Notes under the pieces: model-generated
The model's database searches: none
What the model was told of the DNA's origin: nothing
What the model saw: only the letters and a program-made list of their open reading frames with translations
Shown: piece after piece, positions 31,719-60,116 of the stretch
How positions within the stretch are numbered: position 1 is the first letter of the stretch
Layout of the letters: each line of letters opens with the position of its first letter
NCBI GenBank assembly: GCA_000091205.1
Contig: AP006496.2
Source: Cyanidioschyzon merolae
Lineage: Eukaryota
Strand: one strand, 5' to 3'
DNA: 64,000 bases
Position numbers and translations under genes: made by a program

Positions 31719-32960
31719 CTAGTGCGACCGAACGAAGCCTCGGTGCTGTCCATGTACACCGGACTCATCAATCTGGAAGGTTACGAGTGTGCCGGGTTCC
31801 GGACCCCAGTCGCTGAAACAAACGCTCGCAGAGCGCAGTGCACCTGCTGGAGTCGATGCCGCATCTGACTGAGATGGAAAGACTCCGCGAACACTGCGCT
31901 GTAACCGGATACGGGTGTTAACGCATTGCGACCAGACAGCGCCGAGTGCCGGCACAAGCTCTCCGTCAGCTCGCTGGGCGACTTGATTCGATGCCACCAC
32001 TGCAAGTGAACGGTGTTCGCGCATGAGGAGACGAAGTGTATTCACGAAGCGGAAAACCCAACGAGCACGCTTCGATAACGCTCCTCTTTTCCGATTTTCA
32101 TACGCATGCCGAATCACAGCAGCGATACTATCGATAATTAGCAGCTTTGGATCCGGAGAGTGTTCAAGGAACTTTCGAAACGGCCCGCGAATGTAACGTG
32201 AAAGCGAGAGCGGTGAGCGCGCCACATGCGCACCCGTTTCCACGAGAATGCGGTTCAGGATGCTTTCCGGTGAACGAGCGATGTCGTTGCCATCGTTATC
32301 TGCGGAAGAAGCTGTTGCTCGTGCAATATCAACGAGGCGTTCAGACGGAAAGCGACCGTTTTCTGTGTGCAGATATAGTGTCATTCCACGATTTCGAGCA
32401 GCAAGTTGGAGGAGAAACTGTGTCTTCCCACTTCCAGCCTCGCCGTAAACCTCTGTCACTGCACCACAACGTATGCACACAACTTGGTCAAGAAGTGGAC
32501 AACCCAGTGAAAGCGTGACGGGTGCGGGTGCGGGTGTCGATCCCTCCAGGGCACCGAAGCGTTCACCCTCCAGTTTGCCGCACAGGGCGCTCGCTGCGTG
32601 CCGAGCCACTAGGCTGGTTTCCCGCGCGACGCGCTCGCACGCGCTCAGAAACGAAGCTCGCAGACCTATGTCGCCGTGCGTAGAGCTCCACGCTGCCAGT
32701 TCCAATAAGGCCTTTGCATCCAAGTCGCTGTTAAACGGCTTCGAACCCGCAGTGCGGACCCCGGAGCGCGTTTTTTCGCGCTCTCGTGCGACAAGCCGTT
32801 GAAGCGCACTTTCCGAACCTTCCGGGGCAAGACGAATCAAACGCTCTGCCAGCGCCAAGGGGAAAGCATCTGCAGGTGGTGTCTGCTGTACAGCAGCGTC
32901 CAGTTCACACGGGAGTCTGACGTCTGCACAACCTGCGTCGTCAGTGCTTGCACAGTCCAT
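31719..32960 (-). CDS. RAD51 paralog (RecA-family ATPase), XRCC3-like
   Basis: LSLGCPLLDQVVCIRCGAVTEVYGEAGSGKTQFLLQLAA carries the Walker A motif (compare XRCC3 [39 protein letters not shown]). LLIIDSIAAVIR aligns with VVIDSVAAPFR, and the C-terminal FQIDESGVHGQ with TISAEGVRGT. ATG start verified. Confidence 0.75.
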   Translation of the reverse strand: MDCASTDDAGCADVRLPCELDAAVQQTPPADAFPLALAERLIRLAPEGSESALQRLVAREREKTRSGVRTAGSKPFNSDLDAKALLELAAWSSTHGDIGLRASFLSACERVARETSLVARHAASALCGKLEGERFGALEGSTPAPAPVTLSLGCPLLDQVVCIRCGAVTEVYGEAGSGKTQFLLQLAARNRGMTLYLHTENGRFPSERLVDIARATASSADNDGNDIARSPESILNRILVETGAHVARSPLSLSRYIRGPFRKFLEHSPDPKLLIIDSIAAVIRHAYENRKRGALSKRARWVFRFVNTLRLLMREHRSLAVVASNQVAQRADGELVPALGAVWSQCVNTRIRLQRSVRGVFPSQSDAASTPAGALRSASVCFSDWGPEPGTLVTFQIDESGVHGQHRGFVRSH

Positions 32961-33650
32961 CGAGCAACGTCTGCAAGTGGAGGCTTGCCGTTCCGTTCAC
33001 AGCATCAGGTGCCGGTAGCCAGGTTACTAACGCAACCAATTAAAAGCGACCATATATCAAGCGTTCTGAGCCCGAACTGCGTCCACCAGAGGGGCGTTCC
33101 GCAGTACTTGCCGCCAAGGCTTGTGTCAAAGCGACACGCGCTTGCCGTAGAACGCACCTTTAGTGCAGCGTCGGGCGCGAGCGACACGTCTACAGCGCGA
33201 TACTCGCCCCGCGCTTGTGCTGCAGTACCGGCTTTGTTACCAGTGGGTCTCTCTCGAGGAATACCTCGTGATGCGGTCATGCTCTGGGAGGCTTCACAAC
33301 TGCGCACCTACGCCATATTCATGCATGAAACAGCGGGTGCTTCGCATACAGGGACTGGATCGCATTCGAGTTCCGGGCTCGAGCGCTATTCCCATGAACT
33401 CGTCAGCTTTGTACAGAGGAAGAGGCAGAGACAGCGACTTTGTGCACCCAGTTGGCGATGCATTAAACCTGGCGATCTTGCCGTGAGCTCTGTCGCGCTC
33501 AAATACATGAACAAGCAAGTCCGTCGAGCGCGGAAACCGCAGTTGTGCACGTGCACTGCCCGCAGAACATTGGTCCCTAACAGCGTCTTCTGAGCGATAA
33601 ACAGTTGCTTCCCAGAGTCCGGGCACATCTGTGCTCAGAAGCAGGCTCTT

Positions 33651-34772
33651 TTACGAGACGTCAAGCGCTTCATTGCTCCCGGGTGCTCCCAAGTCCGGTG
33701 CGCATTCACGAGCAGCCGCCATATCATGCGGATCTTCTTCGTTTGCCGCAAGGCTCGCTCCAGGCTGTGCACCGGGAACGAAAGCCAACGGTGCGACTAA
33801 AAACTCAAAAAAACAATGTTGTGAGGCAGGGAAGGCGCCTTCTGAGGCCGCCAGCGCCACCTCCACCACAGCATTTGTCTTACGGTTCACAGAGTTGCGG
33901 AATCCGTGCCCTGTTGGCAGCGGCACTCGAGCTGTCATATGAAGTACATCATTCGCATTCATTCGGAGACGAACAAGATCGGCGCGCTGAAGTGCTCGCA
34001 GACATCTCTTGAGCAGCAGCGCACTATAGGCCACAGTCTGCTCCTGAACGCACTCAAACTCGAGAAAGGCAACGTCCTCAGCGGGTTCGTCGTCTCCTGT
34101 GCCAAAAAAAGGTATCTGGACGCGCACATTGGACACGGTTTGATCGCCGAGCGCCTGCATCCGCAAACCTGGGCAAGGATAGGGTACCATACTTAGTTGC
34201 GCTGCAGCCGCTCCGGTGTAGTCGAGTTCGGCGAGACAGATCGCGAGTACTCGACTCATGATTACAGCATCATTGTAAATCGGCACCTGAAGAAACTCAA
34301 AGTCATGGAGCGGAACTTGTGCTGCTGTCTGCACTTCACAGTCCAGGTAGCTTGTTGGATCGATCTGGAGCAACAACTGCAGCGGGCTTCCCCGTCGCTG
34401 GTACAGCATCCGCAGCGGTGCCCCGAGTGCAGACCTATCCACCGGACCTGTACAACCCACGAACAGTTGCAGACAGGTCAGTAGCTCTGTCCGTGGAACC
34501 TGAAAAGCAGTGTCCTCGACGACATCTGCCGGCGGGTGACACTCGAATAAGGTGAACAGCTCCCGCGGTAGCGTCACACACGCCTGAAAATAACCAGACT
34601 CTTGTACGACAAAGCGCAGTCCGTTCTGGTTGCGTGGAACCACCACAAGAACCAGGTCGCTAGAGAGAGAAGCTGCCGAAGGTAGACTTTGGAGCGCGTC
34701 AACCAGAAACTTTCCGCTTTGTAACTTGCATAAAAGCAACGGATTCGGGCTTTCGATGGCGCTGTCCACCAT
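33651..34772 (-). CDS. RAD1: RAD1/Rec1-like checkpoint clamp (9-1-1 complex) subunit
   Basis: LRMLYQRRGSPLQLLLQ aligns with human RAD1 LRMCYQGYGYPLMLFLE, and the C-terminal QHCFFEFLVAPLAFVP...EED with QICFVEYYCCPDEE. The length suits a PCNA-like fold. ATG start verified. Confidence 0.55.
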   Translation of the reverse strand: MVDSAIESPNPLLLCKLQSGKFLVDALQSLPSAASLSSDLVLVVVPRNQNGLRFVVQESGYFQACVTLPRELFTLFECHPPADVVEDTAFQVPRTELLTCLQLFVGCTGPVDRSALGAPLRMLYQRRGSPLQLLLQIDPTSYLDCEVQTAAQVPLHDFEFLQVPIYNDAVIMSRVLAICLAELDYTGAAAAQLSMVPYPCPGLRMQALGDQTVSNVRVQIPFFGTGDDEPAEDVAFLEFECVQEQTVAYSALLLKRCLRALQRADLVRLRMNANDVLHMTARVPLPTGHGFRNSVNRKTNAVVEVALAASEGAFPASQHCFFEFLVAPLAFVPGAQPGASLAANEEDPHDMAAARECAPDLGAPGSNEALDVS

Positions 34773-35409
34773 AGATAGGTTACGGACGCCAGTTTCGGGA
34801 GCGGTCTAGCGAAATCACTTCCCGCCGTTTTGTGTATTGTGCGGACTCGGCGGCGTCGTTTTCGAGCAGCCGCAGCGGCCATGAAAACGTGTGTGCTCTC
34901 CGACACGAGGCCTGAGCTGCGGGACTTTGGTTGCAGAGCTGGCAAACGTTCTGGTGGGACACAAGTACGTTGATGAGAAGGATTTCGTGCGTTCCGAAAC
35001 CTCGTTCGGGAAGCACGCGCCACGCTCAGGGGTCTGAGCGCCGCCAAAGCTGCTCTAAAGTTCGACTGGCCTGGTGAAAGCTCATCACGAGGGAGGTACT
35101 TGTCGCGAACGTGTCTCGCAAACCCAATAATGTTCTTGATAGCAGAAAAATGGTCTGGTTAAATCACATGACGATGGAGACGTCTGGTTCACTAGTGTCT
35201 CGCGAACCCCGCAGTATCCTCATTCGATTCGAGCAATTGTTGCATCCCAGGGACAGAGAGAAGGCTTGAGTTGCGTGCTACATCAAGCGTTCTGCGTTGC
35301 GTTGGAAAATCGAGCGGCACCGAGTCGGGTCTATCTATTCGCGCGTACTGCACCCATCTTTACACGGCGATCGAAGCACACCGTTGGAGATACGCACAAA
35401 CTTGTAAAA

Positions 35410-36549
35410 CTAGAGCGGCGCCACGCTGAGCCGGACTAGTTCGGGAAACTGCGCTATCATATCTTCCTCCGTGAGCGTGTCGTTCGGTCGATCAGGGGTC
35501 CAGAGAACCTCCACCGCAAGCAGGTCGTCTTCCGTGACACCATGAAGCGCCTCCAAGACATGGCCGCTGGAGCGCGCAACACCTGTGAGGTTCCGGATCG
35601 CGACAAGAAGCGCCACCACGAGGAAGCTATCAGGCTCTGTTTCCTCCCCAGGCGCATTATTTGCATCTCCAGTTTCATCTGAATGAATTCGGCGGACGCC
35701 GTCCAAGTTCAGGACGGTGTCTTCACGCCAATTCGCTTTAATCTGCACGCTCATTCGACGAAAGGAGCTTTCAGCAGCCGATTCTTCAGATGCATCGAAG
35801 GTTAGCACATCGTGAGCAGATGCGTACCATCCCTCGCCGGTCTCGCGGGCTCTTTCAAGCAAGAGCGTAGCGTCGCGGAGAAGATGGCAAAGATCTCGTG
35901 GTTGCGTTGTGTCTAGCTCTGCAGCTAGGGCTTGCAGTTTGGGACGGACAAAGTCTCGAGCTTCGCCTCGAAGCGCGACCAATAGTCGAGCGACGGCTAT
36001 GCTTCCCGGCTGGAAGCTTATCCCACGCTTGGTCCGGTCACCGCGACTTTTCAGGGTCGAAGCAGCTATGACGCTACCGAAAATCGCTATCTCCCATGGA
36101 AACGAGTTGCCGGTTCGTGGACCACGAGCCGTAGGCACTTGGACGCTCACTGTTCCTTCGCTGTCAGAAAAGCTCAGGTCGCCAGTGGTTTCCTGTCTGT
36201 ACACCTGGCGACTTGGTCTACCAGGGAGGACTGTATCACTGGGACCAGTGCCAGACGACTCTGAACGGCTCCAACCGCCGACACTGCCGCCCGTTCGACT
36301 GGCGAGCACTTGTTGAACCGCCACTCCGGAACGGTTTTGCACGAACAGTACTTGCGCCGGCACGGGCTGCAGCCACGGAAAAGTCATCAACAGCCCCCGG
36401 CGTGGTTGACAACCCAAACGCGACGCTCTTCTTGTTCTGCGCGCTCTGAAGTGCACGCCTTCCTCCTGAGGAGAAACCGGTACGAGCGTGCGTACTGCTG
36501 CACCAAAACGCCCGCTCGTTGCACCTGGGGCTCCTCCGCAACTGAACAT
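35410..36549 (-). CDS. DUF1517-like protein (tentative)
   Basis: LQALAAELDTTQPRDLCHLLRDATLLLERARE and the C-terminal LAVEVLWTPDRPNDTLTEEDMIAQFPELVRL resemble the conserved blocks of the plant, algal and cyanobacterial DUF1517 family. The ORF-track start is GTG; the first ATG is at 36549. Confidence 0.35.
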   Translation of the reverse strand: MFSCGGAPGATSGRFGAAVRTLVPVSPQEEGVHFRARRTRRASRLGCQPRRGLLMTFPWLQPVPAQVLFVQNRSGVAVQQVLASRTGGSVGGWSRSESSGTGPSDTVLPGRPSRQVYRQETTGDLSFSDSEGTVSVQVPTARGPRTGNSFPWEIAIFGSVIAASTLKSRGDRTKRGISFQPGSIAVARLLVALRGEARDFVRPKLQALAAELDTTQPRDLCHLLRDATLLLERARETGEGWYASAHDVLTFDASEESAAESSFRRMSVQIKANWREDTVLNLDGVRRIHSDETGDANNAPGEETEPDSFLVVALLVAIRNLTGVARSSGHVLEALHGVTEDDLLAVEVLWTPDRPNDTLTEEDMIAQFPELVRLSVAPL

Positions 36550-38596
36550 TGTGAACACGGTGTAAACGGTTTACGTCTAGAGCGAAAAGCTTCAGTTCGC
36601 ACAGCGGCAGCAATCTCCTATGGCTCAGCGTCTCGAGGCTGTGCCCAAGTCCGGTGCCAGCAACGGTTCCTAGCGCGCAACTCGCCGCAGAACAGCGGCA
36701 AGCAGATGCCAAAGGCTTTCTTATGTTCTGGAGAACGTTTGCACTGATAAGTGTGGACGACGGAACGAATACATTACGGAGATCGAGTGCGTGTATGCAC
36801 CCACTCACAGAAACCTCCCGGTCATTTTTGACCGGCCGGCTGCATTCGGCTTTAGCGTCTGATTGTACACTTCGAGCGGGAGAGGCTGCCCCACGAAGTT
36901 GGATTGCCCCAGCTCCTCGGGTCTTGTTCTCAGCTGCACACATCGTTTGCTATTGATGGCACTGTTGAAGTGTGGGTTCACGAACTCCTTGCGGGCTTTG
37001 CCGCTGGTGGAACGCACCTTTGCAAGGATTCCTCCACGTCGCGCCCTCTGTGCCACCACAGTCTTGTTATATTGCGTCGGGCAACGAGCTTTTCTCGCTT
37101 GTCTCGCCATTTCTTCATATTCGTCGTTTGCTCTTTGTCTGTCGACGGTCGGCGAGAAGGGGATTGTTTCCGATCTTTTCCCCGCACTCGGCGATGAACG
37201 GCCGCCGAAAGGCTCGACCTCCATGTCCGTAACTGTCCCTTGGATTTTTTATGTTTCCAATATGCACGTACTTGCTTATGCTGTTGGGCGAGGACCTTCC
37301 CTGCGTGAAAATGACTTGTGGAAGATCGACGACATGTGTCCCGATGTGTCGCCGTGTGCTGAGCGCTTCAGCGATTCGCCCAGTGGCGCGAACCTTACAT
37401 TTCGCAACCGAGAACACTTCTTCGGTAGGGTTGAAACACGGAGCCTACGGAGGAATGAGAACCAGCTCTACCCCCGATAGAATCGGCAAAAGCTTGAACG
37501 CATGGGGAATGGTGAGATGCTACATTGTGCAATTCAAGGACGTCGCCATACCTCAGGGAAAAGTCTTCAGTGACTCGACAATGAAGATGCTATTGCGGGA
37601 GCCTTCTCTACGAGCCAAAATTGAGGCCGCCGAATCCATGCACTGCATCTGGAACACTTGATGACGTCGTCGTTCTCTTCGAGACCGATCGTACGTACAA
37701 CGGACTCCCAGCTCCGCGAATGCCCATAAACGCTCCGAGCGTTTCGTACAATGAACGTCTCATCGATGAAAACAACAAACCGACACCTCCCTACTTGATA
37801 TCGATCGTACCTTTCCAGACACGCTGTCGGTACAATATCAGTGGAAGATGACCGAGCGTGAATTAGGACTCTCTTTTTGCGTCTGCATCCTAATGTTGCT
37901 GAGGACTGCACGAACAACCCGCAGAGAAATAGAGACGCGCCTGGCAAACACGATCGACGCTTTTGCTTTCTCCACAGCGATCAACGGACCGCTTTTCTAC
38001 CATTGACCGCACGCACGCTTTGAGCATATCCATTTTTGGCGATGATTGCATACACGAGTTTCTTGCAGTGTTCGTCAGCCAGCAGCGTACTGTGCTATGA
38101 CTGACCTGAAAGAGGAATGCATTCCTCCTCGCACTATCCGGTAAAGCATATATATCTCCTACAATCAATGCATCTACGATCTATACAGCACATTGCATGG
38201 TGATGTCGATCGCCTGCTGGACACCGCAGCGGGGGCGCAGCAACCAAATCGAATCGGAAGACGAGAAGGGAAATGTAGCGCTCACGCTTCTGGGGAAGTC
38301 TGGATCGATTCTCCGATCCGGTCTCATCAGCTCCACGGGAGCGAAAATGCTTGTCGCTGCTTTCATGTCCAACATCAGGTCTGTGTTCGTGACATAGACA
38401 CTCGGCTTCTCAGTACCAGCATTCATCGAGTTGCGGCTCGTGAGCGCTTTGTGCGGAGGAGGTGCTCGTGAGCACTCGCGCGGACACGTCGTCGCGGCGT
38501 CCGCATTCGGCAGCGCAGCGGTACCGGCTGGGCATCTTGGCTGAGGATCGTGTGCTGCCTGCCGGACTGCGCTGCTCGACACAACTTGCACACTTT

Positions 38597-39913
38597 ATGC
38601 AAATGACGTCATCAGAGACGCCTTTATACCCTTTTTCATTCACAATCTACCAGGGCTGTGTAGAAACTTGGTCGGAGTGGGCTCGAGAGCCGGACGTTGT
38701 CGCCCTGGAGACACTGCTCCGAGTGTGCGGCGTACCCGACAGTGCTGTGCAGACGCTTTCCAGCGGTACGCCTTACATGACCGATCGACTGGTGTTTCCG
38801 GTGCTTCACATACGTCGAAACGCCGAGCAGTGTGGTGAAGCGCCGCTTCAGGACTTTGTAGTTAGTGGCTGGTACGCTTGTCGGGGCTTGTTGCTCGACT
38901 TGGGGGTGCTCTCACCAGGGCAGTGCACGCCGGTCGCAGAGTCGCTGGTCTCACTGGTCCGCGATCGACTGGATCTTGGTCGTTTGTATGAATGGTGGCA
39001 CATAGATGCGAACTATTCTAGCTTCACGAAGCGCTACTGGTCGACGTTGTACCAGCTGCCGTGGATGGCGCGATGGACGATGCCCCGGCAGGAACGCGAC
39101 GCGGTGCGTACACGTCTGCTCATGCAGAGCGCAGCGTATCGACAGGTGCTTCGTCGGACTCGACCGACTTCGTCCAGTGGCGGAGCTACTTTCCGCAGTC
39201 CTTTTCCACCGGAGCGACGGCAGCAGCAGGGTCAGGAACGTGACCTTCATTCAGCGTCGTGGTCTGACGCGTCTGCGGCGCCCGCAGCGACGGCAGGGGA
39301 AGCAGGTGCGGCCGCGCTGGAAGCCGCAGCAGATGCTGAATTCTGGTCTCTGGAGATTGAACCTGTCCTTGATGCTCTCGCTGCGATGCTGGGTGAGCAT
39401 CGCTATTTCCAGTGCAGCAAAACGCTAGCGCCCACGACGACTGCGATGGAATCGCAGAATGGACCAACGACTGCACCAGGTTACGTGGACGCAGTGGTAT
39501 ACGGCCATTTGCTCGTATATTTACAGATGGAGCTACCAGTTGCGAGTCGCTTACGGGCGCTCGTAGCACAGCGACCGACACTGCAGCGTTATGTGGCACG
39601 AATGCGAGACACGCACTTACATTCGTGTGCTGAGGAGCAATCTGGGGCGGCGGAAGGTGTGCCACCCAGGGTCGCATCCGCTGGTGATTTGCCACGACCG
39701 CATCCGTCGCATGCTTCGTGGCAGGCAACCGGTAGCGCAAGGTCGAGCAACCGGTCCAAAATGAGCTCGACGCCAGAGGAGGACGCAGCCCAAGAACGCC
39801 AATTGGCGAATCGCACATTCGTCTGGCTCGCTGTTGGCAGCTTTATCTTTTACGCTTTATTCGGGACAGCGCTCGATGTTCGCATCGGAGACAGCTCGTA
39901 CGATGCAACATGA
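38597..39913 (+). CDS. Metaxin/Tom37-like GST-fold protein with a C-terminal transmembrane anchor
   Basis: The GST-C-like block GEHRYFQCSKTLAPTT...GYVDAVVYGHLLVYLQMELPVASRLRALVAQRPTLQRYVARM aligns with metaxin-1 GSQKFFFGDAPASLDAFVFSYLALLLQAKLP...LHNLCAYCTHI. The C-terminal hydrophobic segment is FVWLAVGSFIFYALFG. The ORF-track start is GTG; the first ATG is at 38597. Confidence 0.5.
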   Translation: MQMTSSETPLYPFSFTIYQGCVETWSEWAREPDVVALETLLRVCGVPDSAVQTLSSGTPYMTDRLVFPVLHIRRNAEQCGEAPLQDFVVSGWYACRGLLLDLGVLSPGQCTPVAESLVSLVRDRLDLGRLYEWWHIDANYSSFTKRYWSTLYQLPWMARWTMPRQERDAVRTRLLMQSAAYRQVLRRTRPTSSSGGATFRSPFPPERRQQQGQERDLHSASWSDASAAPAATAGEAGAAALEAAADAEFWSLEIEPVLDALAAMLGEHRYFQCSKTLAPTTTAMESQNGPTTAPGYVDAVVYGHLLVYLQMELPVASRLRALVAQRPTLQRYVARMRDTHLHSCAEEQSGAAEGVPPRVASAGDLPRPHPSHASWQATGSARSSNRSKMSSTPEEDAAQERQLANRTFVWLAVGSFIFYALFGTALDVRIGDSSYDAT

Positions 39914-40407: not shown

Positions 40408-41679
40408 TCAGTCCATGAGCGGGAAAAGATACTCTTTGACAATATCACGCAGTAGAATGCGGGCATCGTCTGCCTGCAGATCACGTGTATCTGCAAGCAA
40501 GCACCTGACGCGCTCCGCGGCATTCCTCACGTTCTCGTCAACGACGGCACATGTTTGAGGGTGCTCCTGGTCAGACAAGCGCTGCATCCTGCGTACGCGA
40601 TGATTTGGTGATGGCGGTGGCCGCCTGGATGCACTGCTTGGCGCTGGGGGCGGCGAAAAACTCATATTGACGGCGCTCGTGCCGGCAGTAGCCTGCTGGG
40701 TCCGTTGGGCGTTCGCCTCAGAGGCGAACTCGTCGCCACCAGTGGACGCATGTGCGCTACACGACGCTGCGGAGCGACTGCGGAGACGCTGCATCGTGCC
40801 GGCAGCAGCAGCGTGACGGCGTGAGCACAGCATTTGCCGCAGGGCGACTTCGAAGGCCTCGGTTTTCGCGACAGCATCTGAGAGCGCCTGCACTGTACTC
40901 GCTCGGGTTGCAACCGTCTGCGATGTCGACAGGATACATGGCCAATCGCGCTGTTTGATCCAGGATAACATGGATGCATCGGCAGGCATGCCGAAGTAGT
41001 GGACAGTTAGTTCGTAGTACGCTGGGGCGCCCTGCTCAAACTCGAGGAGGTAGTCGAGAGGCACACGCTCGTGGCGCACCTGCACTGAAGGTCTGCTGCG
41101 CGGGAACGGCCGGTACCCCTGGGGATAGACGCGGAAAGCGCGCAGCGCAACCTGCCCGACTCGGCGGCTCCGGACCGGGTCCACGATGAGGATCACCCAG
41201 GGTCCTTGGCCGCTTTCCTGAACAGCACCGTGACTTGCCAGTTCACTTCGGCTGAGCCAGCAGCCGTATCCGTGATGCGAGCGGTACCAGCCGACAGCGT
41301 TCAAGGCGATGCCCGGCGTCAGTAGCTGCGAGCGGTTCTCGGGCAGTTGAGCGTCGCGCGCTGGTGACACTGGTACAGGCACTGTACCTGGAGGCGCGCA
41401 AGCAGGTGTCGCGTCCCAAACGACGACCGCTCGGCTCGACGCTCCTGGCGGCACGAAACCCCATAAAACCCCTTGTGTTTCTGTTGCGGAACACTGTTCA
41501 AAGCAGTGGCTTGTCACTTCGCTCAGCGCGAGCACCGAAACGTACACGTCGCGAAACGTGGTCGCTGTCGTTTCGGAACCCTGTTCGGACTCGTGCAGTA
41601 GCGTCGCTGTGCGCTCCAGCAAGGAGCCTGTCTCGCGGAGGCGACGCCAACCGCTAGGGTATGCGACGCGCTCGAGCAT
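40408..41679 (-). CDS. CSN5/Rpn11-like MPN-domain protein with a degenerate JAMM motif
   Basis: [13 protein letters not shown] aligns with the CSN5 block NLEVMGLMLGKV containing the conserved Glu. [19 protein letters not shown] aligns with CSN5 [51 protein letters not shown] aligns with [42 protein letters not shown] aligns with QYYALEVSYF. ATG start verified. Confidence 0.8.
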   Translation of the reverse strand: [423 protein letters not shown]

Positions 41680-41989: not shown

Positions 41990-43137
41990 AAATGGAACGC
42001 TGAACTTGTCGATCTGTTCCTGCGTATCGATTGGGTTTTCCGAACGATTTACCAGAGACAGAGCTTCGAGATTCGCAGTGCAGCAATACGGGATTACGGA
42101 TTCATAGATAATTTCAGGAGTTTCCATCGTCTTGTCGCGGAAATTCAGGATGCCAAGGATATCGGGGTGATTCGCAACACACTCGAACAAAGGCACCTCA
42201 AATAGATGATCGTATCTTCCAGTGCATACGCACGAGGCTCCGCTCTCCTCCAATCCCTGCGGTACCAGCATGCTCTAATCAGGTATGCTTCGGGTTTTCG
42301 ATTTCTGTGGTCCAAGGCAACTCGCGGACGCGACAATGCGCGCTGTTGAATGGACGAGGAAGACAACTCGGCGTCGTCGTTTGAAGAGTTGTTGCATGGA
42401 GAAGGGTCCTGGATGCTGACTTGAGGCATCGCAGCGATCGACTCGAATGGAGTGTCGAAGGAGCAACCCATATCGACCGGATTTCCATACTGGATTTCCG
42501 TCTCGGTTCTTGGTTGTGCATGGAGAACATTGCGTTCAGCAAATCCTCTATTGATCGGAAGGGCGTGCGCTTGCTTGTGAAGCGAACAGCGTACCCGCCT
42601 ATGCGACTGCCCAGAGGAGGCTCGTATCGGAAGTGTGCGGCACTCGGCATTGAGACTGAGGCAGATATCATGGGGCGCCCTCTCTACCAGTCCGGGGCAC
42701 GTACCGGGCGAAGAAGCGAGCGGTGACGCACCCCAGGGCGGCGCTCGGAGGCGGAGGCGGCACGGGAGGCCCACGGGAATACCCTGCGGTAGCCGAACGA
42801 TACCCCGACGAATTCGCTCCCCGGATTCATACAAAGCAAAGGCACGTAGTAAGGGAAACATGTATCGATTGTGACGCCAATGCATACACTGCATGAAGAA
42901 CTGCTGCAGGCGGCGACCTTGCGACTCGAACGCTGCCATCAAAGTCCTTCGACTGCTGCAAACGTAGCCAGTTCGAAAGGAACGACCGAGTTGTTCACAG
43001 CCGGCGCTCAGAGAGAGTCTAAAGGAAGCGGTTGCCGAGAAATCCCGCATATATCGGTGTTGATCACAGTCGAAAGAAGCCAAACCAGTAGCGTATACGC
43101 CCGAGTTGTCAAACTGGACCCATTCCATCTCAGTCTG
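41990..43137. repeat. Inverted repeat arm A (1148 bp); partner at 53790..54937
   Basis: Reverse-complement comparison gives coordinate pairs x+y=96927. Boundaries are at 41990/54937 (outer) and 43137/53790 (inner). About six substitutions were seen in 1148 bp. Confidence 0.9.
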
Positions 43138-43443
43138 GTATGGCTCCATCATAACCCTGGACCCCCGGGTGTGCGTGTGCTATCAATAACCATCGGGAGA
43201 CCGCAGTTCCATTTTAGACGTCGCCAGGTGCTGCTCATCCTGGAACCGTGTTCAGCTCAATACCAGCGAGCAAGTCGATGGAGCGATCGCCCTTGGCGTA
43301 CGTTTTCGCTGGCGAGGGCGTTGCAGATGCGCCTCTCGCTGGCCAGCCTGCGGAGATGCAACATTTTTGTAATCGTAGTAGGTAGCGGGTCTGGGAAGTG
43401 GTACCAGGACGGCTCGTTTCTCTTGACTAGACGCGCATGGCTC

Positions 43444-45714
43444 ATGACGACGTACTTCGATCGGCTGCTGGCGTCGCTTTCTTCAGCGCTCGAGATTAAT
43501 GCAGCGACGCTGAGCGGTGCTGCGGATATCATCGTCATCCAACAGCCCGACGGACGCCTGGTGTCGACTCCGTTTCACGTCCGTTTCGGTAAACTGCAGT
43601 TACTTAAAAGTCGCGAGAAGGTCGTGGAGATTGAAGTTAGTCCGCTTGATGAAGTTGAAGCGGTAGCGGTAGCAAAGCAGCTGGAGCGCTCCTCCACGGC
43701 GAGCACCGGGCCACCGCCACCCCAGAGCCTAGAAACATCACGGGGCACGTACAGGGCACCGCTTACCATGCTGCTTGGCTCAGCTGGTGAGGCTTTTTTT
43801 GTAGAAGAGACATCTTCGGAGTCTACCGTCGAACTCGAGGGACAAACCCCCGGCGAGGCAATATGGGTGGAACGCGCCCCCAGTGAGCCACCTTCACCCT
43901 GCAGCGAAACCTTCCGCGACTGGCGCTCAGCAGCTGAGCCCAGTGCCGCGTCAAGCTGCCGAGAAGAGTCCCAGAGCGCCTTTAGCGATAGCGAGCAGCC
44001 CACTGGAGCCGAACGCCTCCAGCTGCCTCCGTCGGACTCCGCAGACCTGAGGGCATCCTCGCAACCAGAGTCGCGATGGAGCAGCCGCTTCGGCAGTATG
44101 CTACGAAGGCAACGTCAAACGGGGGCGGAAACACGCTCCTCATCGAGCACTCCGACAGATGTCATAACTTTGGGGATAGAGTCGCTGACGTCATCGCCAC
44201 CGGCCGCTGCACAGCAACAAGCTGAACTGCTGGCATCGCGGGCTTCATCGCGATCCTCACTAGAGGGCGAGAGGTCTCCCGCAGCTGGCGTGGAGTCGCT
44301 TGTCTTTGAAATGGATGACAGTGGCCAAGCGATGACTGAGTCCAGTGTACCGGAAGTTGCAGCCGCTACCGCACCCGCACCCGCAGCATTCACGAGCGCC
44401 ACGGATGTGCATGCTGTCGGCAAGCCCCCCGTTGCCTTGTCGCTATGTGGGCACTTGATCACACCCCAAATGACCCCTGTACAAGTACATGAGGTATTCG
44501 AAGCAAACCGCATATCCCTTGATTACTTTCGGGGTCATGTTACCATTCTCAATCATCCAGATATTCTGGTACGCATTCATGACCAAATCTACCCGCTACG
44601 AGTCGCAACACCGTTGCTGTACGGCATGTTGGCCTTTAACACGGTGCTTGATCCCCATGCGGTCGATCGACAAACAACAGCACCAAAAGCGCGACCGCCG
44701 AGAGCGCGTTTTACCTGGTTCGGGCTTCGAAGCAGTCAACTAGAGGACTCTAGTACCGATTTGTTGCAGCTGGGTGAGCCACTCACGGAAGCGGAAACTG
44801 AACTCAAGCCACCGATGGAAACAAGCACGACCAGCACCGCCGAAGCGAAGCAACATCTGCTGCCGCTGCACCGACCGCGATACATGCGCAAGTCGTTGTA
44901 TCCGAGTTCTGCGCAGTTGGCGCAACTCGGCCTGCGACCCGGAACTAATCTGATCACGTTCACAGTGCAGAGTCGATTACAAGGAGTTCAACGAGTTTGT
45001 AGTCGAATCTATTTGTGGCCCCATGATGTGCGTCTATGCATCAGCGACGTCGACGGTACCATTACACGTAGCGATGTGCTTGGACAAATTCTCCCGCGTG
45101 TCGGCAAGGACTGGAGTCATCAGGGCGTCGCCAGTTTGTATCGAGCCATCGCTCGGAACGGGTACAAGTTTCTCTATTTAACATCGCGTGCGATAGGACA
45201 GGCGTCGGCTACTCGAAGCTACTTGACAACGCTGCAGCAAGAGGGGGGTCTTGGTCTTCCCGACGGGCCGCTCCTGCTCTCCCCGGATCGGGTGATCGAG
45301 TCTTTCACGCGCGAAGTGCTTCGACGGCGTCCGCAAGACTTTAAGATTGCAGCATTGGAGCAGGTCCGTCGACTCTTTCCACCGGGCAACTACAATCCGT
45401 TTTTCGCGGGTTTCGGGAACCGCGACTCTGACCGCATCGCCTATGCGGCCGTTGGGGTGCCACCAGAGCGCGTCTTTATTGTGAACGCTCGCGGCGAGCT
45501 GCAGGTGGGTAACCACGTATACAGTGCGCTCTCGTCGTTCAACGCGCTGCAGAAACTCGTTGACTCCATCTTTCCCGACATTTCCACCGTTTCTGGGCAG
45601 CAGAAAGTAATGGAAGTTCACGAAGCGCATGCCTTTAATGATTATCAGTATTGGAAGCGACCCTATTCACCGACGGGAAGTAGCAGCGACGCTGTATCGC
45701 GTTTCTTTTCGTAG
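43444..45714 (+). CDS. LPIN: Lipin / phosphatidate phosphatase (Pah1/Ned1 family)
   Basis: The N-LIP block is GAADIIVIQQPDGRLVSTPFHVRFGKLQLLKSREKVVEIEV. The C-LIP HAD catalytic motif is ISDVDGTITRSD (DxDxT), followed by FFAGFGNRDSD. The CDS is started at the ATG at 43444, because the ORF-track N-terminal 191 aa lie inside inverted-repeat arm A and are unrelated to lipin. Confidence 0.9.
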   Translation: MTTYFDRLLASLSSALEINAATLSGAADIIVIQQPDGRLVSTPFHVRFGKLQLLKSREKVVEIEVSPLDEVEAVAVAKQLERSSTASTGPPPPQSLETSRGTYRAPLTMLLGSAGEAFFVEETSSESTVELEGQTPGEAIWVERAPSEPPSPCSETFRDWRSAAEPSAASSCREESQSAFSDSEQPTGAERLQLPPSDSADLRASSQPESRWSSRFGSMLRRQRQTGAETRSSSSTPTDVITLGIESLTSSPPAAAQQQAELLASRASSRSSLEGERSPAAGVESLVFEMDDSGQAMTESSVPEVAAATAPAPAAFTSATDVHAVGKPPVALSLCGHLITPQMTPVQVHEVFEANRISLDYFRGHVTILNHPDILVRIHDQIYPLRVATPLLYGMLAFNTVLDPHAVDRQTTAPKARPPRARFTWFGLRSSQLEDSSTDLLQLGEPLTEAETELKPPMETSTTSTAEAKQHLLPLHRPRYMRKSLYPSSAQLAQLGLRPGTNLITFTVQSRLQGVQRVCSRIYLWPHDVRLCISDVDGTITRSDVLGQILPRVGKDWSHQGVASLYRAIARNGYKFLYLTSRAIGQASATRSYLTTLQQEGGLGLPDGPLLLSPDRVIESFTREVLRRRPQDFKIAALEQVRRLFPPGNYNPFFAGFGNRDSDRIAYAAVGVPPERVFIVNARGELQVGNHVYSALSSFNALQKLVDSIFPDISTVSGQQKVMEVHEAHAFNDYQYWKRPYSPTGSSSDAVSRFFS

Positions 45715-58581: not shown

Positions 58582-60116
58582 AGACACCACGACCTCGTAA
58601 TCGCGTTCCTGTCAGAGGTGACCTCAACTGGAGGCTTCGACCCATTCCCGCCCGCTGGTTGCACTTGCATCACGACCATTTGCAAAAGCGAGACCCACGG
58701 GATGTTTCATTCCGATGGAACGACCACGCTACATACGCTGTTGGTGTGTAATCGCCGCGAATGTCTGGCTTTGCAGTTGCTGGGTTCACGTCGGTAGCAG
58801 GTCCGTCACTTGGCGCTGAAGCTGCAGAACATTCTCGGCGAGTGTGCCTGTCGAGCACAGCAGGCGAGCGAATGCGGGAACATGGTTACCGTGTAACGTC
58901 GCCCCGAAGGTCGGAAAGCCCCAAAGACGCAGTCCTTTGAATGCGGCTGGCTCAGTGACCCTGCTGGTCAGCCTGGTGTTCCAGTACCTAACGCCGTTGC
59001 GCACTGAGCACGCGATGGAAAGGCCGCAAACCATGCTGGGCACCTGGTATCCGAGCGCATGTGGCGCCGAAGTTATGGCCTCTGGCTTGGTCCTATAGCA
59101 CGCCGCGCTGCTCGTTTTAAGCAGCACGCCTTGTCTAATAGGCATGCTTCGGGCGCGGCGAGCACCAGGGACCTGGCGGGTCCGCGGACTCGTTCCAGGA
59201 CCTGCGGGCATGGCGCACATGTGTGGGTTTGTGTGTACACGGAACCCCGACACGAGAGATATCCAATGCCACGATCGACTCTTGGTAGAACATAGTATCT
59301 GCCGGATATTCTAGGCATCCCACAGGCCGCGGAACGGCGCCCAGTGGTCAGTCTGCAAGCCTCGGGGATGCCATGCGCCATGGACAAACAGGCGACGCAG
59401 AGCAGCGCCCTCGAGTAGACGTCCGTCGGGGTAAAACATGAGGTCGCGCTGACCCTGCAACGCGCCTCTGGCAGCGTTTTCAATAGCGGGGTAGGCGTCC
59501 GTTTTGGGTTTGCCTCCTGGAGCGTTCGCGGATCGCTCAGACCCGTATTTTATCGGAGGATACTCCCCGGAAACAGCGAGAGCATAAAAGCGTCGGCAGC
59601 GGAGCTGGGGTCTGTTCCTGGTCGCTTCGCAGGCTCCGTCCATTCATAACGCTCCAGTTCCATGCATTCATCGATCTCACACGACCTACCATGTAAAGTT
59701 TCTGACGGTACTGATTGCCGTCCAGCTTGCAAGCGGGGTCAGATGCTGCTTGCAGCCATCGCGCCTGAACAAGCGACCTGTATACCATGTTCGCACACAA
59801 AAAAGCGCACAAGGTGTTTTTCTATTCATTGGCATGCGCTGCGGTGCTCTCATGGCAAAAGCGTGCAGTACGGGCGGCGCGACTCGAACGCGCGATCTTG
59901 TGCGTGTTAGGCACACGTCATAACCATCTAGACCACGCCCGCGCGACGAATAAGCATGCACAACAATTGATATATAAATGCTTTGGAATCTGTGCGCAAG
60001 GATGGCGAGTATGATTCGGATTCGCAGGGGCGCTGCTCCGAGCCCCGAGGTACTGGACGTCCTCGTTGACTAGCGGAGCGTCTCAGACAGACCCAAGAGC
60101 GTTGTGGGTTTCACTC

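Follow-up and report, generated by a model that had tools for sequence, protein, structure and literature searches.

In the Cyanidioschyzon/Cyanidiococcus lineage, the CSN5 (JAB1/Rri1) ortholog carries Arg and Glu in place of two zinc ligands of its JAMM metalloprotease site, and it is probably a lineage-specific pseudo-deneddylase kept as a subunit for binding or scaffolding. CSN5 is a signalosome (CSN) subunit whose normal job is the removal of NEDD8 from cullin ubiquitin ligases, and Cyanidioschyzon merolae is a hot-spring, acidothermophilic red alga. The gene was analyzed within a window of 64,000 nucleotides of C. merolae DNA, to which all positions refer, and its features are collected in Table 1.

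The 423-aa open reading frame is identical to BAM81191.1/XP_005537227.1 of C. merolae 10D (100% identity, 100% coverage), and the GenBank label of XP_005537227 is "similar to COP9 signalosome subunit Csn5". A literature search by the accession numbers of the gene found no papers. The neighboring genes differ between C. merolae and Cyanidiococcus, and this context provides no functional clue.

Table 1. Features of the CSN5-like gene and their positions in the window
Feature	Residues (aa)	Position	Strand	Basis or remark
Complete CDS, CSN5-like, intron-less	423 aa + stop	40408-41679	-	ATG start; ORF list
Codon of E67, retained upstream JAMM Glu (human E76)	67	41479-41481	-	Invariant in two alignments; in all three cyanidiophyte proteins
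MPN/JAB domain core	42-245	40945-41556	-	Pfam PF01398, hhalign, AF2, Foldseek
Degenerate Ins-1 segment	90-126	41302-41412	-	Replaces near-invariant LPVEGTETRVNAQ loop of canonical CSN5
Broken JAMM signature	130-146	41242-41292	-	Alignments to CSN5
First long C-terminal helix	246-294	40798-40944	-	Homologous to helix after the MPN core in CSN5; hhalign reaches aa 282; AF2 pLDDT up to 86
Low-complexity insertion, predicted disordered	295-374	40558-40797	-	S, A, R, P-rich
Conserved C-terminal helix	375-418	40426-40557	-	AF2 helix; resembles last CSN5 helix

Assignment to CSN5

Sequence, profile and predicted fold all place the protein with CSN5, as a reading of the sequence alone had proposed. 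The protein matches the JAB/MPN family PF01398 in Pfam (E 1.1e-7), and a phmmer search of the PDB gave E 8e-25 (91 bits) for human CSN5 versus 4e-11 (46 bits) for Rpn11. In hhalign, a canonical CSN5 profile aligned with residues 39-282 at a probability of 99.95% (E 9e-38). The AF2 model is of moderate confidence (mean pLDDT 65, with the MPN core mostly at 70-89) and matches both CSN5 and Rpn11 structures at a Foldseek probability of 1.00. However, the best 21 PDB matches are all CSN5 chains, and Rpn11 (E 4e-14 versus 5e-19 for CSN5) ranks beneath every CSN5 structure; the earliest eIF3 chain appears at rank 46. When the ten best matches of the representative search were looked up, every named protein was CSN5.

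The sequence-only reading had left room for a paralog of Rpn11 (PSMD14). Rpn11 is indeed the second-best family, with a common MPN+ ancestry and the same overall architecture, but its scores are much weaker (some 45 bits below CSN5 in phmmer, and lower in the Foldseek ranking), and the CSN5-specific segments that follow the core have no Rpn11 match. An Rpn11 relative is thereby ruled out. Descent from an established MPN- family was also rejected, because CSN5, followed by Rpn11, gives the best matches, and both are MPN+ families.

The likeness to CSN5 extends along the protein, which has the GYGCWL core, the AFRxYP strand, the Ins-2 segment, the YYxLxVxYF strand and two predicted long C-terminal helices, and which keeps the upstream Glu as well as the second His of the zinc site. 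Support for matching the last helix to that of CSN5 is modest (local profile-profile P 1.8e-4 over 38 columns), and the Pfam family CSN5_C (PF18323) gave no match to the protein at E<=1; for this helix, L409, K415 and F419 are invariant in the alignment with canonical CSN5. In canonical CSN5, the last helix enters the CSN helical bundle with the partner subunits.

The broken zinc site

The JAMM motif is defined as HxHx7Sx2D (PMC7531848). The HMMER alignment to human CSN5 is gap-free over this motif and pairs R133 with H138, H135 with H140, S143 with S148 and E146 with D151, confirming the substitutions (first His to Arg, Asp to Glu) seen in the sequence-only reading. The upstream Glu, E67, is retained. 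A complete motif, E-x(n)-H-x-H-x7-S-x2-D, is absent from the clade, which reads E, then R-x-H, then S, T or N, and finally E. A further difference from canonical CSN5 is that the Gly adjoining the site is Arg (R144). In the C. merolae protein, H135 is also followed immediately by another His, H136; this residue was rejected as a compensating ligand because both sister lineages have Pro at the position.

Each ligand change lies one base from the canonical codon, with CGC for R133 (41281-41283) in place of CAC and GAA for E146 (41242-41244) in place of GAY, which taken alone would fit a sequencing, assembly or gene-model artefact. The same broken motif occurs in 15 environmental or strain protein variants (98-99% identity), none of which has it intact, and the same codons are found at the DNA level in six to seven independent C. 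merolae-type assemblies (metagenome or SRA). The same residues also appear in two further species whose proteins have diverged at over half of all positions, and no indel disturbs the alignment to human CSN5. An error in base calling or gene modeling is refuted by these data.

Age and distribution of the loss

Cyanidiococcus yangmingshanensis and a third cyanidiophyte lineage share both arginines and the Glu with C. merolae. Their orthologs are 42-43% identical to the C. merolae protein, with motifs that end in [NT]RVE, and the Glu codon among the cyanidiophyte orthologs is either GAA or GAG. The catalytic Ser position, which varies within the clade, is Ser in C. merolae only and Thr or Asn in the sister lineages. 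Among the other CSN5 relatives examined that cover the motif (n=267), no zinc ligand is lost and E, H-x-H and D are retained; the exceptions at the motif are a single protein with Ser>Leu and another with Glu>Gln. The motif break is thus lineage-specific, fixed in C. merolae populations, and old. This much of the lineage-specific loss of activity offered by the sequence-only reading stands; we infer the loss of deneddylase activity itself from the changed zinc-ligand residues.

When 1.84 billion representatives were searched exhaustively with HMMER, the clade scored 750-797 bits and the next match 145 bits. No score between 750+ and <=145 bits was found in this search for intermediate lineages such as Galdieria and Cyanidium. 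With the full-length protein as query, low-complexity words crowded the candidates and only two proteins came back; searches with the MPN region and with a mixed alignment gave mostly fungal CSN5, and no other red alga was named.

If the gene were a divergent paralog, a canonical and active CSN5 should be encoded elsewhere in the genome. This is very unlikely. A survey of 61 genomes found no canonical CSN subunits, CSN5 included, in C. merolae (PMC4860701), GenBank calls the C. merolae gene itself Csn5-like, and the Cyanidiococcus ortholog is the protein annotated as CSN5 in that genome. A DNA-pattern scan of metagenome contigs for WYHSHPG[YF]GCW, which matched at least 120 loci, says nothing for or against such a copy, as none of the matches listed came from C. 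merolae-type samples.

Substrate loop and spread of changed positions

The conserved Ins-1 loop of CSN5 (LPVEGTETRVNAQ, including E104 and R106) is degenerate in the cyanidiophyte orthologs. Residues corresponding to human L98, V100, G102, T105 and R106 are altered in all three, and those corresponding to P99, E104 and V107 in some of the three. Canonical CSN5 has 54 columns with a conservation of 95% or more; 27 of them survive, 15 differ in every one of the three orthologs and 12 show a mixture. Losses are concentrated around the zinc and in the substrate loop, since Ins-1 (human 98-107) and the zinc-site segment (138-154) together account for 16 of the 27 columns that are changed or mixed. 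The new residues R133, R144, E146 and R180 are invariant across the three orthologs.

Selection on the gene

The reading frame is full length and uninterrupted in the three lineages (42-56% identical) and in 26 of 26 members of the C. merolae cluster. Synonymous sites are saturated in comparisons with C. merolae, and usable dN/dS ratios come only from the Cyanidiococcus/third-lineage pair, for which the MPN core has a value of about 0.17, the C-terminal helix one of about 0.08 and the linker one of about 0.55. Judged by these ratios, the MPN core and C-terminal helix are under long-term purifying selection.

Polymorphism gives a different picture of the present. Populations of the C. merolae type segregate nine nonsynonymous and three synonymous codons in the gene (pN/pS 1.0, from small numbers), versus two and seven in a fragment of a neighboring gene (Fisher p = 0.03). 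The recent ratio hints at relaxed or weak present-day constraint. The polymorphisms fall mostly at sites that also differ between species.

These data bear on the idea that the gene is a non-functional relic of signalosome loss, expressed or silent, which is drifting toward loss and has no selected function today. The loss of the signalosome from C. merolae has been proposed by Barth et al. (PMC4860701), and the population ratio and the drift of the catalytic Ser and of Ins-1 are what a relic would show. However, a relic does not readily account for the intact reading frames in three divergent lineages, for the low dN/dS of the core and C-terminal helix despite saturated synonymous sites, for the 27 canonical positions that were kept and the four new residues that became invariant, or for the concentration of polymorphism at interspecies-variable positions. 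On balance, a functionless relic is improbable.

Proposed mode of action

Under the preferred reading, a pseudo-deneddylase kept for binding or scaffolding, the ancestor of the lineage would have exchanged the first zinc-binding His for Arg and the zinc-binding Asp for Glu. The nearby Gly would have become Arg, the catalytic Ser would have started to drift, and Ins-1, which positions the NEDD8 tail, would have degenerated. With a cationic side chain in place of a His ligand, the catalytic zinc would most likely no longer be held; a zinc site that is most likely empty would in turn make NEDD8 removal from cullins most likely impossible. Selection has retained the MPN fold along with both C-terminal helices, by which canonical CSN5 docks into a helical bundle with its partners, and a non-catalytic mode of action is therefore likely. 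The protein could serve as a scaffold or binding subunit, much like the MPN- proteins CSN6 and Rpn8, within a CSN-like assembly that is reduced or has diverged strongly. The alternative would be a lone binder of cullin/NEDD8 or of other proteins. Since the partner subunits are reported to be undetectable in C. merolae, a complex for it to scaffold may not exist; the reported lack of its usual partners is another difference between this protein and CSN5 elsewhere.

The conversion of MPN+ into MPN- proteins is a known evolutionary theme, and for the present gene a scaffold or a relic would be the simplest outcome. The MPN- families go back to ancient paralogs, MPN- since the last eukaryotic common ancestor or since an early stage of their own lineages. 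Like CSN6, Rpn8, eIF3f/h, the MPN domain of Prp8 and Abraxas/ABRO1, the C. merolae protein combines an MPN fold with an incomplete zinc site. It differs from them in being the CSN5 ortholog itself, recently inactivated within one red-algal order, and its matches to those families are no better than its match to CSN5. MPN- pseudoenzymes with retained binding functions are well known, and these pseudo-isopeptidases, with presumed binding or scaffolding roles, provide the most likely functional analogy (PMC3431379).

The protein might instead be an active metalloprotease with a non-canonical site, built for example from H135, E146 and E67 or from another ligand, and perhaps holding another metal. 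All three orthologs do keep the second His, the upstream Glu and, where the Asp used to be, a carboxylate, the GYGCWL core is unbroken, C. merolae has its extra His beside H135, and the change from Asp to Glu alone could be tolerated. Arg, however, is no zinc ligand, and its positive charge should repel zinc. It is unlikely that H135, E146 and E67 still bind metal. The extra His is Pro in both sister lineages, the oxyanion/catalytic Ser is Thr or Asn there, the invariant Gly beside the site is Arg, and the loop for the substrate tail is degenerate. Cope et al. reportedly found in 2002 that His and Asp ligand mutants of CSN5 are inactive. Single-ligand mutation was also inactivating in Entamoeba CSN5, in which a single D>N change abolished zinc binding and trapped neddylated cullin (PMC7531848). 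Taken together, these points make an active enzyme a distinctly unlikely reading.

The signalosome and cullin ligases of C. merolae

CSN5 is the most conserved CSN subunit, its JAMM deneddylase is described as kept even in minimal yeast complexes (PMC4860701, PMC3431379), and deneddylase activity has been described as conserved across all CSN-like complexes (PMC3431379). Most CSN subunits are present in the red alga Chondrus (PMC4860701). For C. merolae, a reduced CSN has been mentioned (PMC2996332), contrary to the absence reported in the 61-genome survey. A working SCF with CUL1, SKP1 and RBX1 has also been described in C. merolae (PMC11376382). The literature search found no paper on neddylation in this alga.

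A bolder proposal, which we offer tentatively and think rather doubtful, is that cullin-RING ligases run without any CSN deneddylase throughout the Cyanidioschyzon/Cyanidiococcus lineage, and that the dead CSN5 has been kept for a gained, catalysis-independent role. In that role it might bind neddylated cullins, or another ligand, stoichiometrically or shield them. R133, R144 and R180, three arginines that are newly fixed, would lie in and around the former groove for zinc and the NEDD8 tail.

If this is true, nature would have supplied a separation-of-function allele of CSN5 in an alga that is open to genetic work. A CSN5 ortholog that lost zinc ligands and was still kept through deep divergence would be an exception to the description of deneddylase activity as conserved everywhere. 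It would bear on the long-debated deneddylation-independent functions of CSN5/JAB1, and the presence of the gene would correct the published statement that C. merolae has no CSN subunits. With a working SCF but apparently no CSN deneddylase, the way in which this alga recycles its cullin-RING ligases also becomes a question. The genome of C. merolae holds about 4,800 genes, and gene targeting by homologous recombination and inducible knockdown are both possible, so that these predictions are directly testable.

An insertion between the C-terminal helices

The sequence-only reading described a 200-aa low-complexity C-terminal extension. The region is in fact an insertion of about 80 aa between two conserved, predicted helices of the CSN5 type, and the AF2 model has pLDDT values below 50 over residues 300-315 and 333-373 of it. 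The C. merolae protein has some 80-90 aa more between its C-terminal helices than CSN5 has, and the entire inter-helix linker measures 115-126 aa in the clade versus a median of 36 in canonical CSN5 (n=159).

Identity of the CSN5-like protein

The product of the CSN5-like ORF is identical over its full length to BAM81191.1/XP_005537227.1 of C. merolae strain 10D, labeled "similar to COP9 signalosome subunit Csn5" in GenBank, which makes the window a piece of the nuclear genome of this intron-poor red alga. Pfam recognizes a JAB/MPN domain in the protein (E 1.1e-7). The sequence-only reading had left its origin between CSN5 and Rpn11, and only the first of these stands: CSN5 chains head the PDB sequence matches (E 8e-25, 91 bits), followed by Rpn11 (E 4e-11, 46 bits), and 21 CSN5 chains rank ahead of the first Rpn11 chain when the AlphaFold2 model (mean pLDDT 65; MPN core mostly 70-89) is compared with known structures. 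A relative of Rpn11 is thereby ruled out. A profile of the C. merolae protein and its two distant cyanidiophyte orthologs (see below) matches a canonical CSN5 profile of 24 diverse sequences across residues 39-282 (99.95% probability, E 9e-38). In an exhaustive HMMER search of 1.84 billion representative proteins with the three-protein profile, the best matches outside the clade scored no more than 145 bits, and of ten top matches checked, all those with a name were CSN5 (green alga, bird and mammals). The protein is thus a CSN5 ortholog-type protein.

Features of the window, with the codons of the three invariant arginines
Feature	Position	Strand	Remark
Rad51-like ATPase	31719-32960	-	downstream of CSN5-like gene
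Rad1	33651-34772	-	downstream of CSN5-like gene
DUF1517 protein	35410-36558	-	downstream of CSN5-like gene
Metaxin/Tom37-like GST-fold protein	38462-39913	+	downstream of CSN5-like gene
CSN5-like ORF	40408..41679	-	ATG start, 423 aa
R180 codon	41140-41142		human G184
R144 codon	41248-41250		human G149
R133 codon	41281-41283		human H138
335-aa ORF	42145-43152	-	called as gene in metagenome annotations
947-aa lipin ORF	42871-45714	+	first Pfam domain from residue 205
tRNA-Val (anticodon AAC)	59868-59942	-	sole tRNA of the window

The broken JAMM motif

The 17-residue motif aligns with that of human CSN5 without a gap (HMMER), placing R133 opposite His138, H135 opposite His140, S143 opposite Ser148, R144 opposite Gly149 and E146 opposite Asp151. 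The broken motif that had been read from the sequence, with Arg for the first His and Glu for the Asp, is thus borne out as written, and the conserved upstream Glu is indeed present (E67, human E76). Because one base change would turn the codon of R133 (CGC) or of E146 (GAA) into one for the canonical residue, sequencing error was worth testing. It is ruled out by the same two codons in six independent assemblies, by the same 17 motif residues in all 15 distinct protein variants (98-99% identity; JGI and SRA-derived assemblies), and by two distant orthologs.

These orthologs are P0019, the annotated CSN5 of Cyanidiococcus yangmingshanensis, and P0002, from a third lineage and found in one NCBI assembly and two SRA runs; they share 42-43% identity with the C. 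merolae protein and 56% with each other. Since the 17-residue motifs of both carry the same Arg, Arg and Glu, the replacements of His, Gly and Asp are older than the split of the three cyanidiophyte lineages, whose synonymous sites are saturated. The Glu has been kept despite synonymous change (GAA/GAG) among the orthologs, and in the distant pair the catalytic Ser has given way to Asn or Thr since then. An extra histidine of C. merolae, His136, is Pro in both other orthologs and so is ruled out as a conserved substitute ligand. The P0002 gene call (locus L002, 3284-4705) has a GTG start and 57 extra N-terminal residues without counterpart in the other two proteins; its true start is probably the Met aligned with M1 of C. 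merolae.

The proposal of a lineage-specific loss is supported as far as the motif is concerned. In 147 next-best HMMER representatives and 120 further CSN5, aligned to one HMM, the H-x-H and the Asp are kept in every motif-covering sequence; at other catalytic positions a single sequence has Ser>Leu and one has Glu>Gln, and all further exceptions are fragments. As far as these sequences tell, the break is specific to the clade of these three cyanidiophyte proteins, and the disruption of the JAMM site in this CSN5 ortholog, which predicts its inactivation, is real, fixed and lineage-specific. One green-algal CSN5 model, P0143 (Closterium sp. CAI5476630.1), contains two copies of a 36-residue segment separated by proline-rich filler; an unspliced intron or a faulty gene model in that record is the probable cause.

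The C-terminal region

CSN5 joins the helical bundle of canonical CSN through two C-terminal helices. The AlphaFold2 model of the C. merolae protein has helices at 246-294 and 375-418 with a disordered S/A/R/P-rich stretch between them. The first falls inside the profile match to CSN5; the last shares L409, K415 and F419 with canonical C-termini (GLMAxxVKEKLF), and its local alignment to CSN5 (P 1.8e-4 over 38 columns) provides modest, collinear support. The spacer is 115-126 aa in the clade vs a median of 36 (95th percentile 52) in 159 canonical CSN5. What had been described as a 200-aa low-complexity C-terminal extension is instead an insertion of about 80-90 residues between two predicted CSN5-type helices, not an appended domain. 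The importance of these helices for complex integrity has been discussed (PMC4860701).

Retention and selection

At 54 positions at least 95% conserved in 267 canonical CSN5, the three cyanidiophyte proteins all keep the canonical residue in 27 and all depart from it in 15, with 12 altered in some. Changes cluster in Ins-1, the loop positioning the NEDD8 tail (human L98, V100, G102, T105 and R106; partly P99, E104 and V107), and in the zinc-site segment (H138, G149, D151, V152 and T154; partly S139, P141 and S148). The kept columns define the fold; they include GWY, GYGCWL, DP, AFR, YY and W246. Human G184, G149 and H138 mark positions where nearly every canonical CSN5 has Gly or His and where all three cyanidiophyte orthologs have Arg (R180, R144 and R133), a pattern that suggests a basic feature newly placed under constraint where the active site used to be.

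For the Cyanidiococcus/third-lineage pair, dN/dS (Nei-Gojobori) is 0.17 in the MPN core, 0.08 in the C-terminal helix and 0.55 in the linker. These values indicate that, once the motif was broken, purifying selection still acted on the fold and the C-terminal helix but not on the catalytic and substrate-tail elements. Less probably, the gene is a decaying relic that is now drifting under relaxed constraint: four environmental C. merolae-type haplotypes (loci L008-L013) segregate at 9 nonsynonymous and 3 synonymous codons (pN/pS about 1.0), compared to 2 and 7 in the adjoining metaxin-like fragment (39408-39913; Fisher p = 0.03). However, the numbers are small, and the segregating changes are conservative and at variable positions. 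This polymorphism may reflect relaxed present-day constraint in a small sample.

Relation to the COP9 signalosome

That CSN5 needs its His and Asp ligands for activity was reportedly first shown by Cope et al. 2002. A single D>N change in the JAMM motif (HxHx7Sx2D) leaves Entamoeba CSN5 unable to bind zinc and locks cullin in its neddylated form (PMC7531848). Deneddylase activity is described as conserved across all CSN-like complexes, and MPN- domains as pseudoenzymes with binding functions kept (Pick et al., PMC3431379). Loss of signalosome was proposed for C. merolae when a survey of 61 genomes found none of its subunits there and most of them in the red alga Chondrus (Barth et al., PMC4860701); in an earlier paper, C. 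merolae is one of the organisms credited with a reduced CSN (PMC2996332). A functional SCF with CUL1, SKP1 and RBX1 exists in C. merolae (PMC11376382). The annotated Csn5-like gene conflicts with the absence of all subunits in the survey, and the divergence of its product, at most 145 bits to any canonical CSN5 profile match, may explain the miss.

In the best-supported explanation, the CSN5 ortholog would have lost its zinc site, and hence probably deneddylase activity, in a lineage with an at least strongly reduced signalosome, and would have been kept for a non-catalytic role needing the MPN fold and C-terminal docking helices. As speculation, the newly fixed R133, R144 and R180, at positions that are His or Gly in every active CSN5, could fill the former metal/NEDD8-tail groove or make a new binding surface. 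Both the gene annotation and the conversion of MPN+ to MPN- as a kind of event are known; no mention of the broken motif of C. merolae CSN5 was found in the literature, and an instance in the signalosome's own catalytic subunit appears undescribed.

Neighboring genes

ORFs near the CSN5-like gene encode Rad51-like, Rad1, DUF1517, metaxin/Tom37-like, lipin and RhoGAP proteins. Synteny with the Cyanidiococcus locus (L001) is not conserved, because none of the gene neighbors there matches the Rad51-like, Rad1, DUF1517 or metaxin genes at 31719-39913. The 335-aa minus-strand ORF overlaps the 5' end of the lipin ORF; the alternatives are a more downstream start for lipin and a spurious 335-aa ORF.
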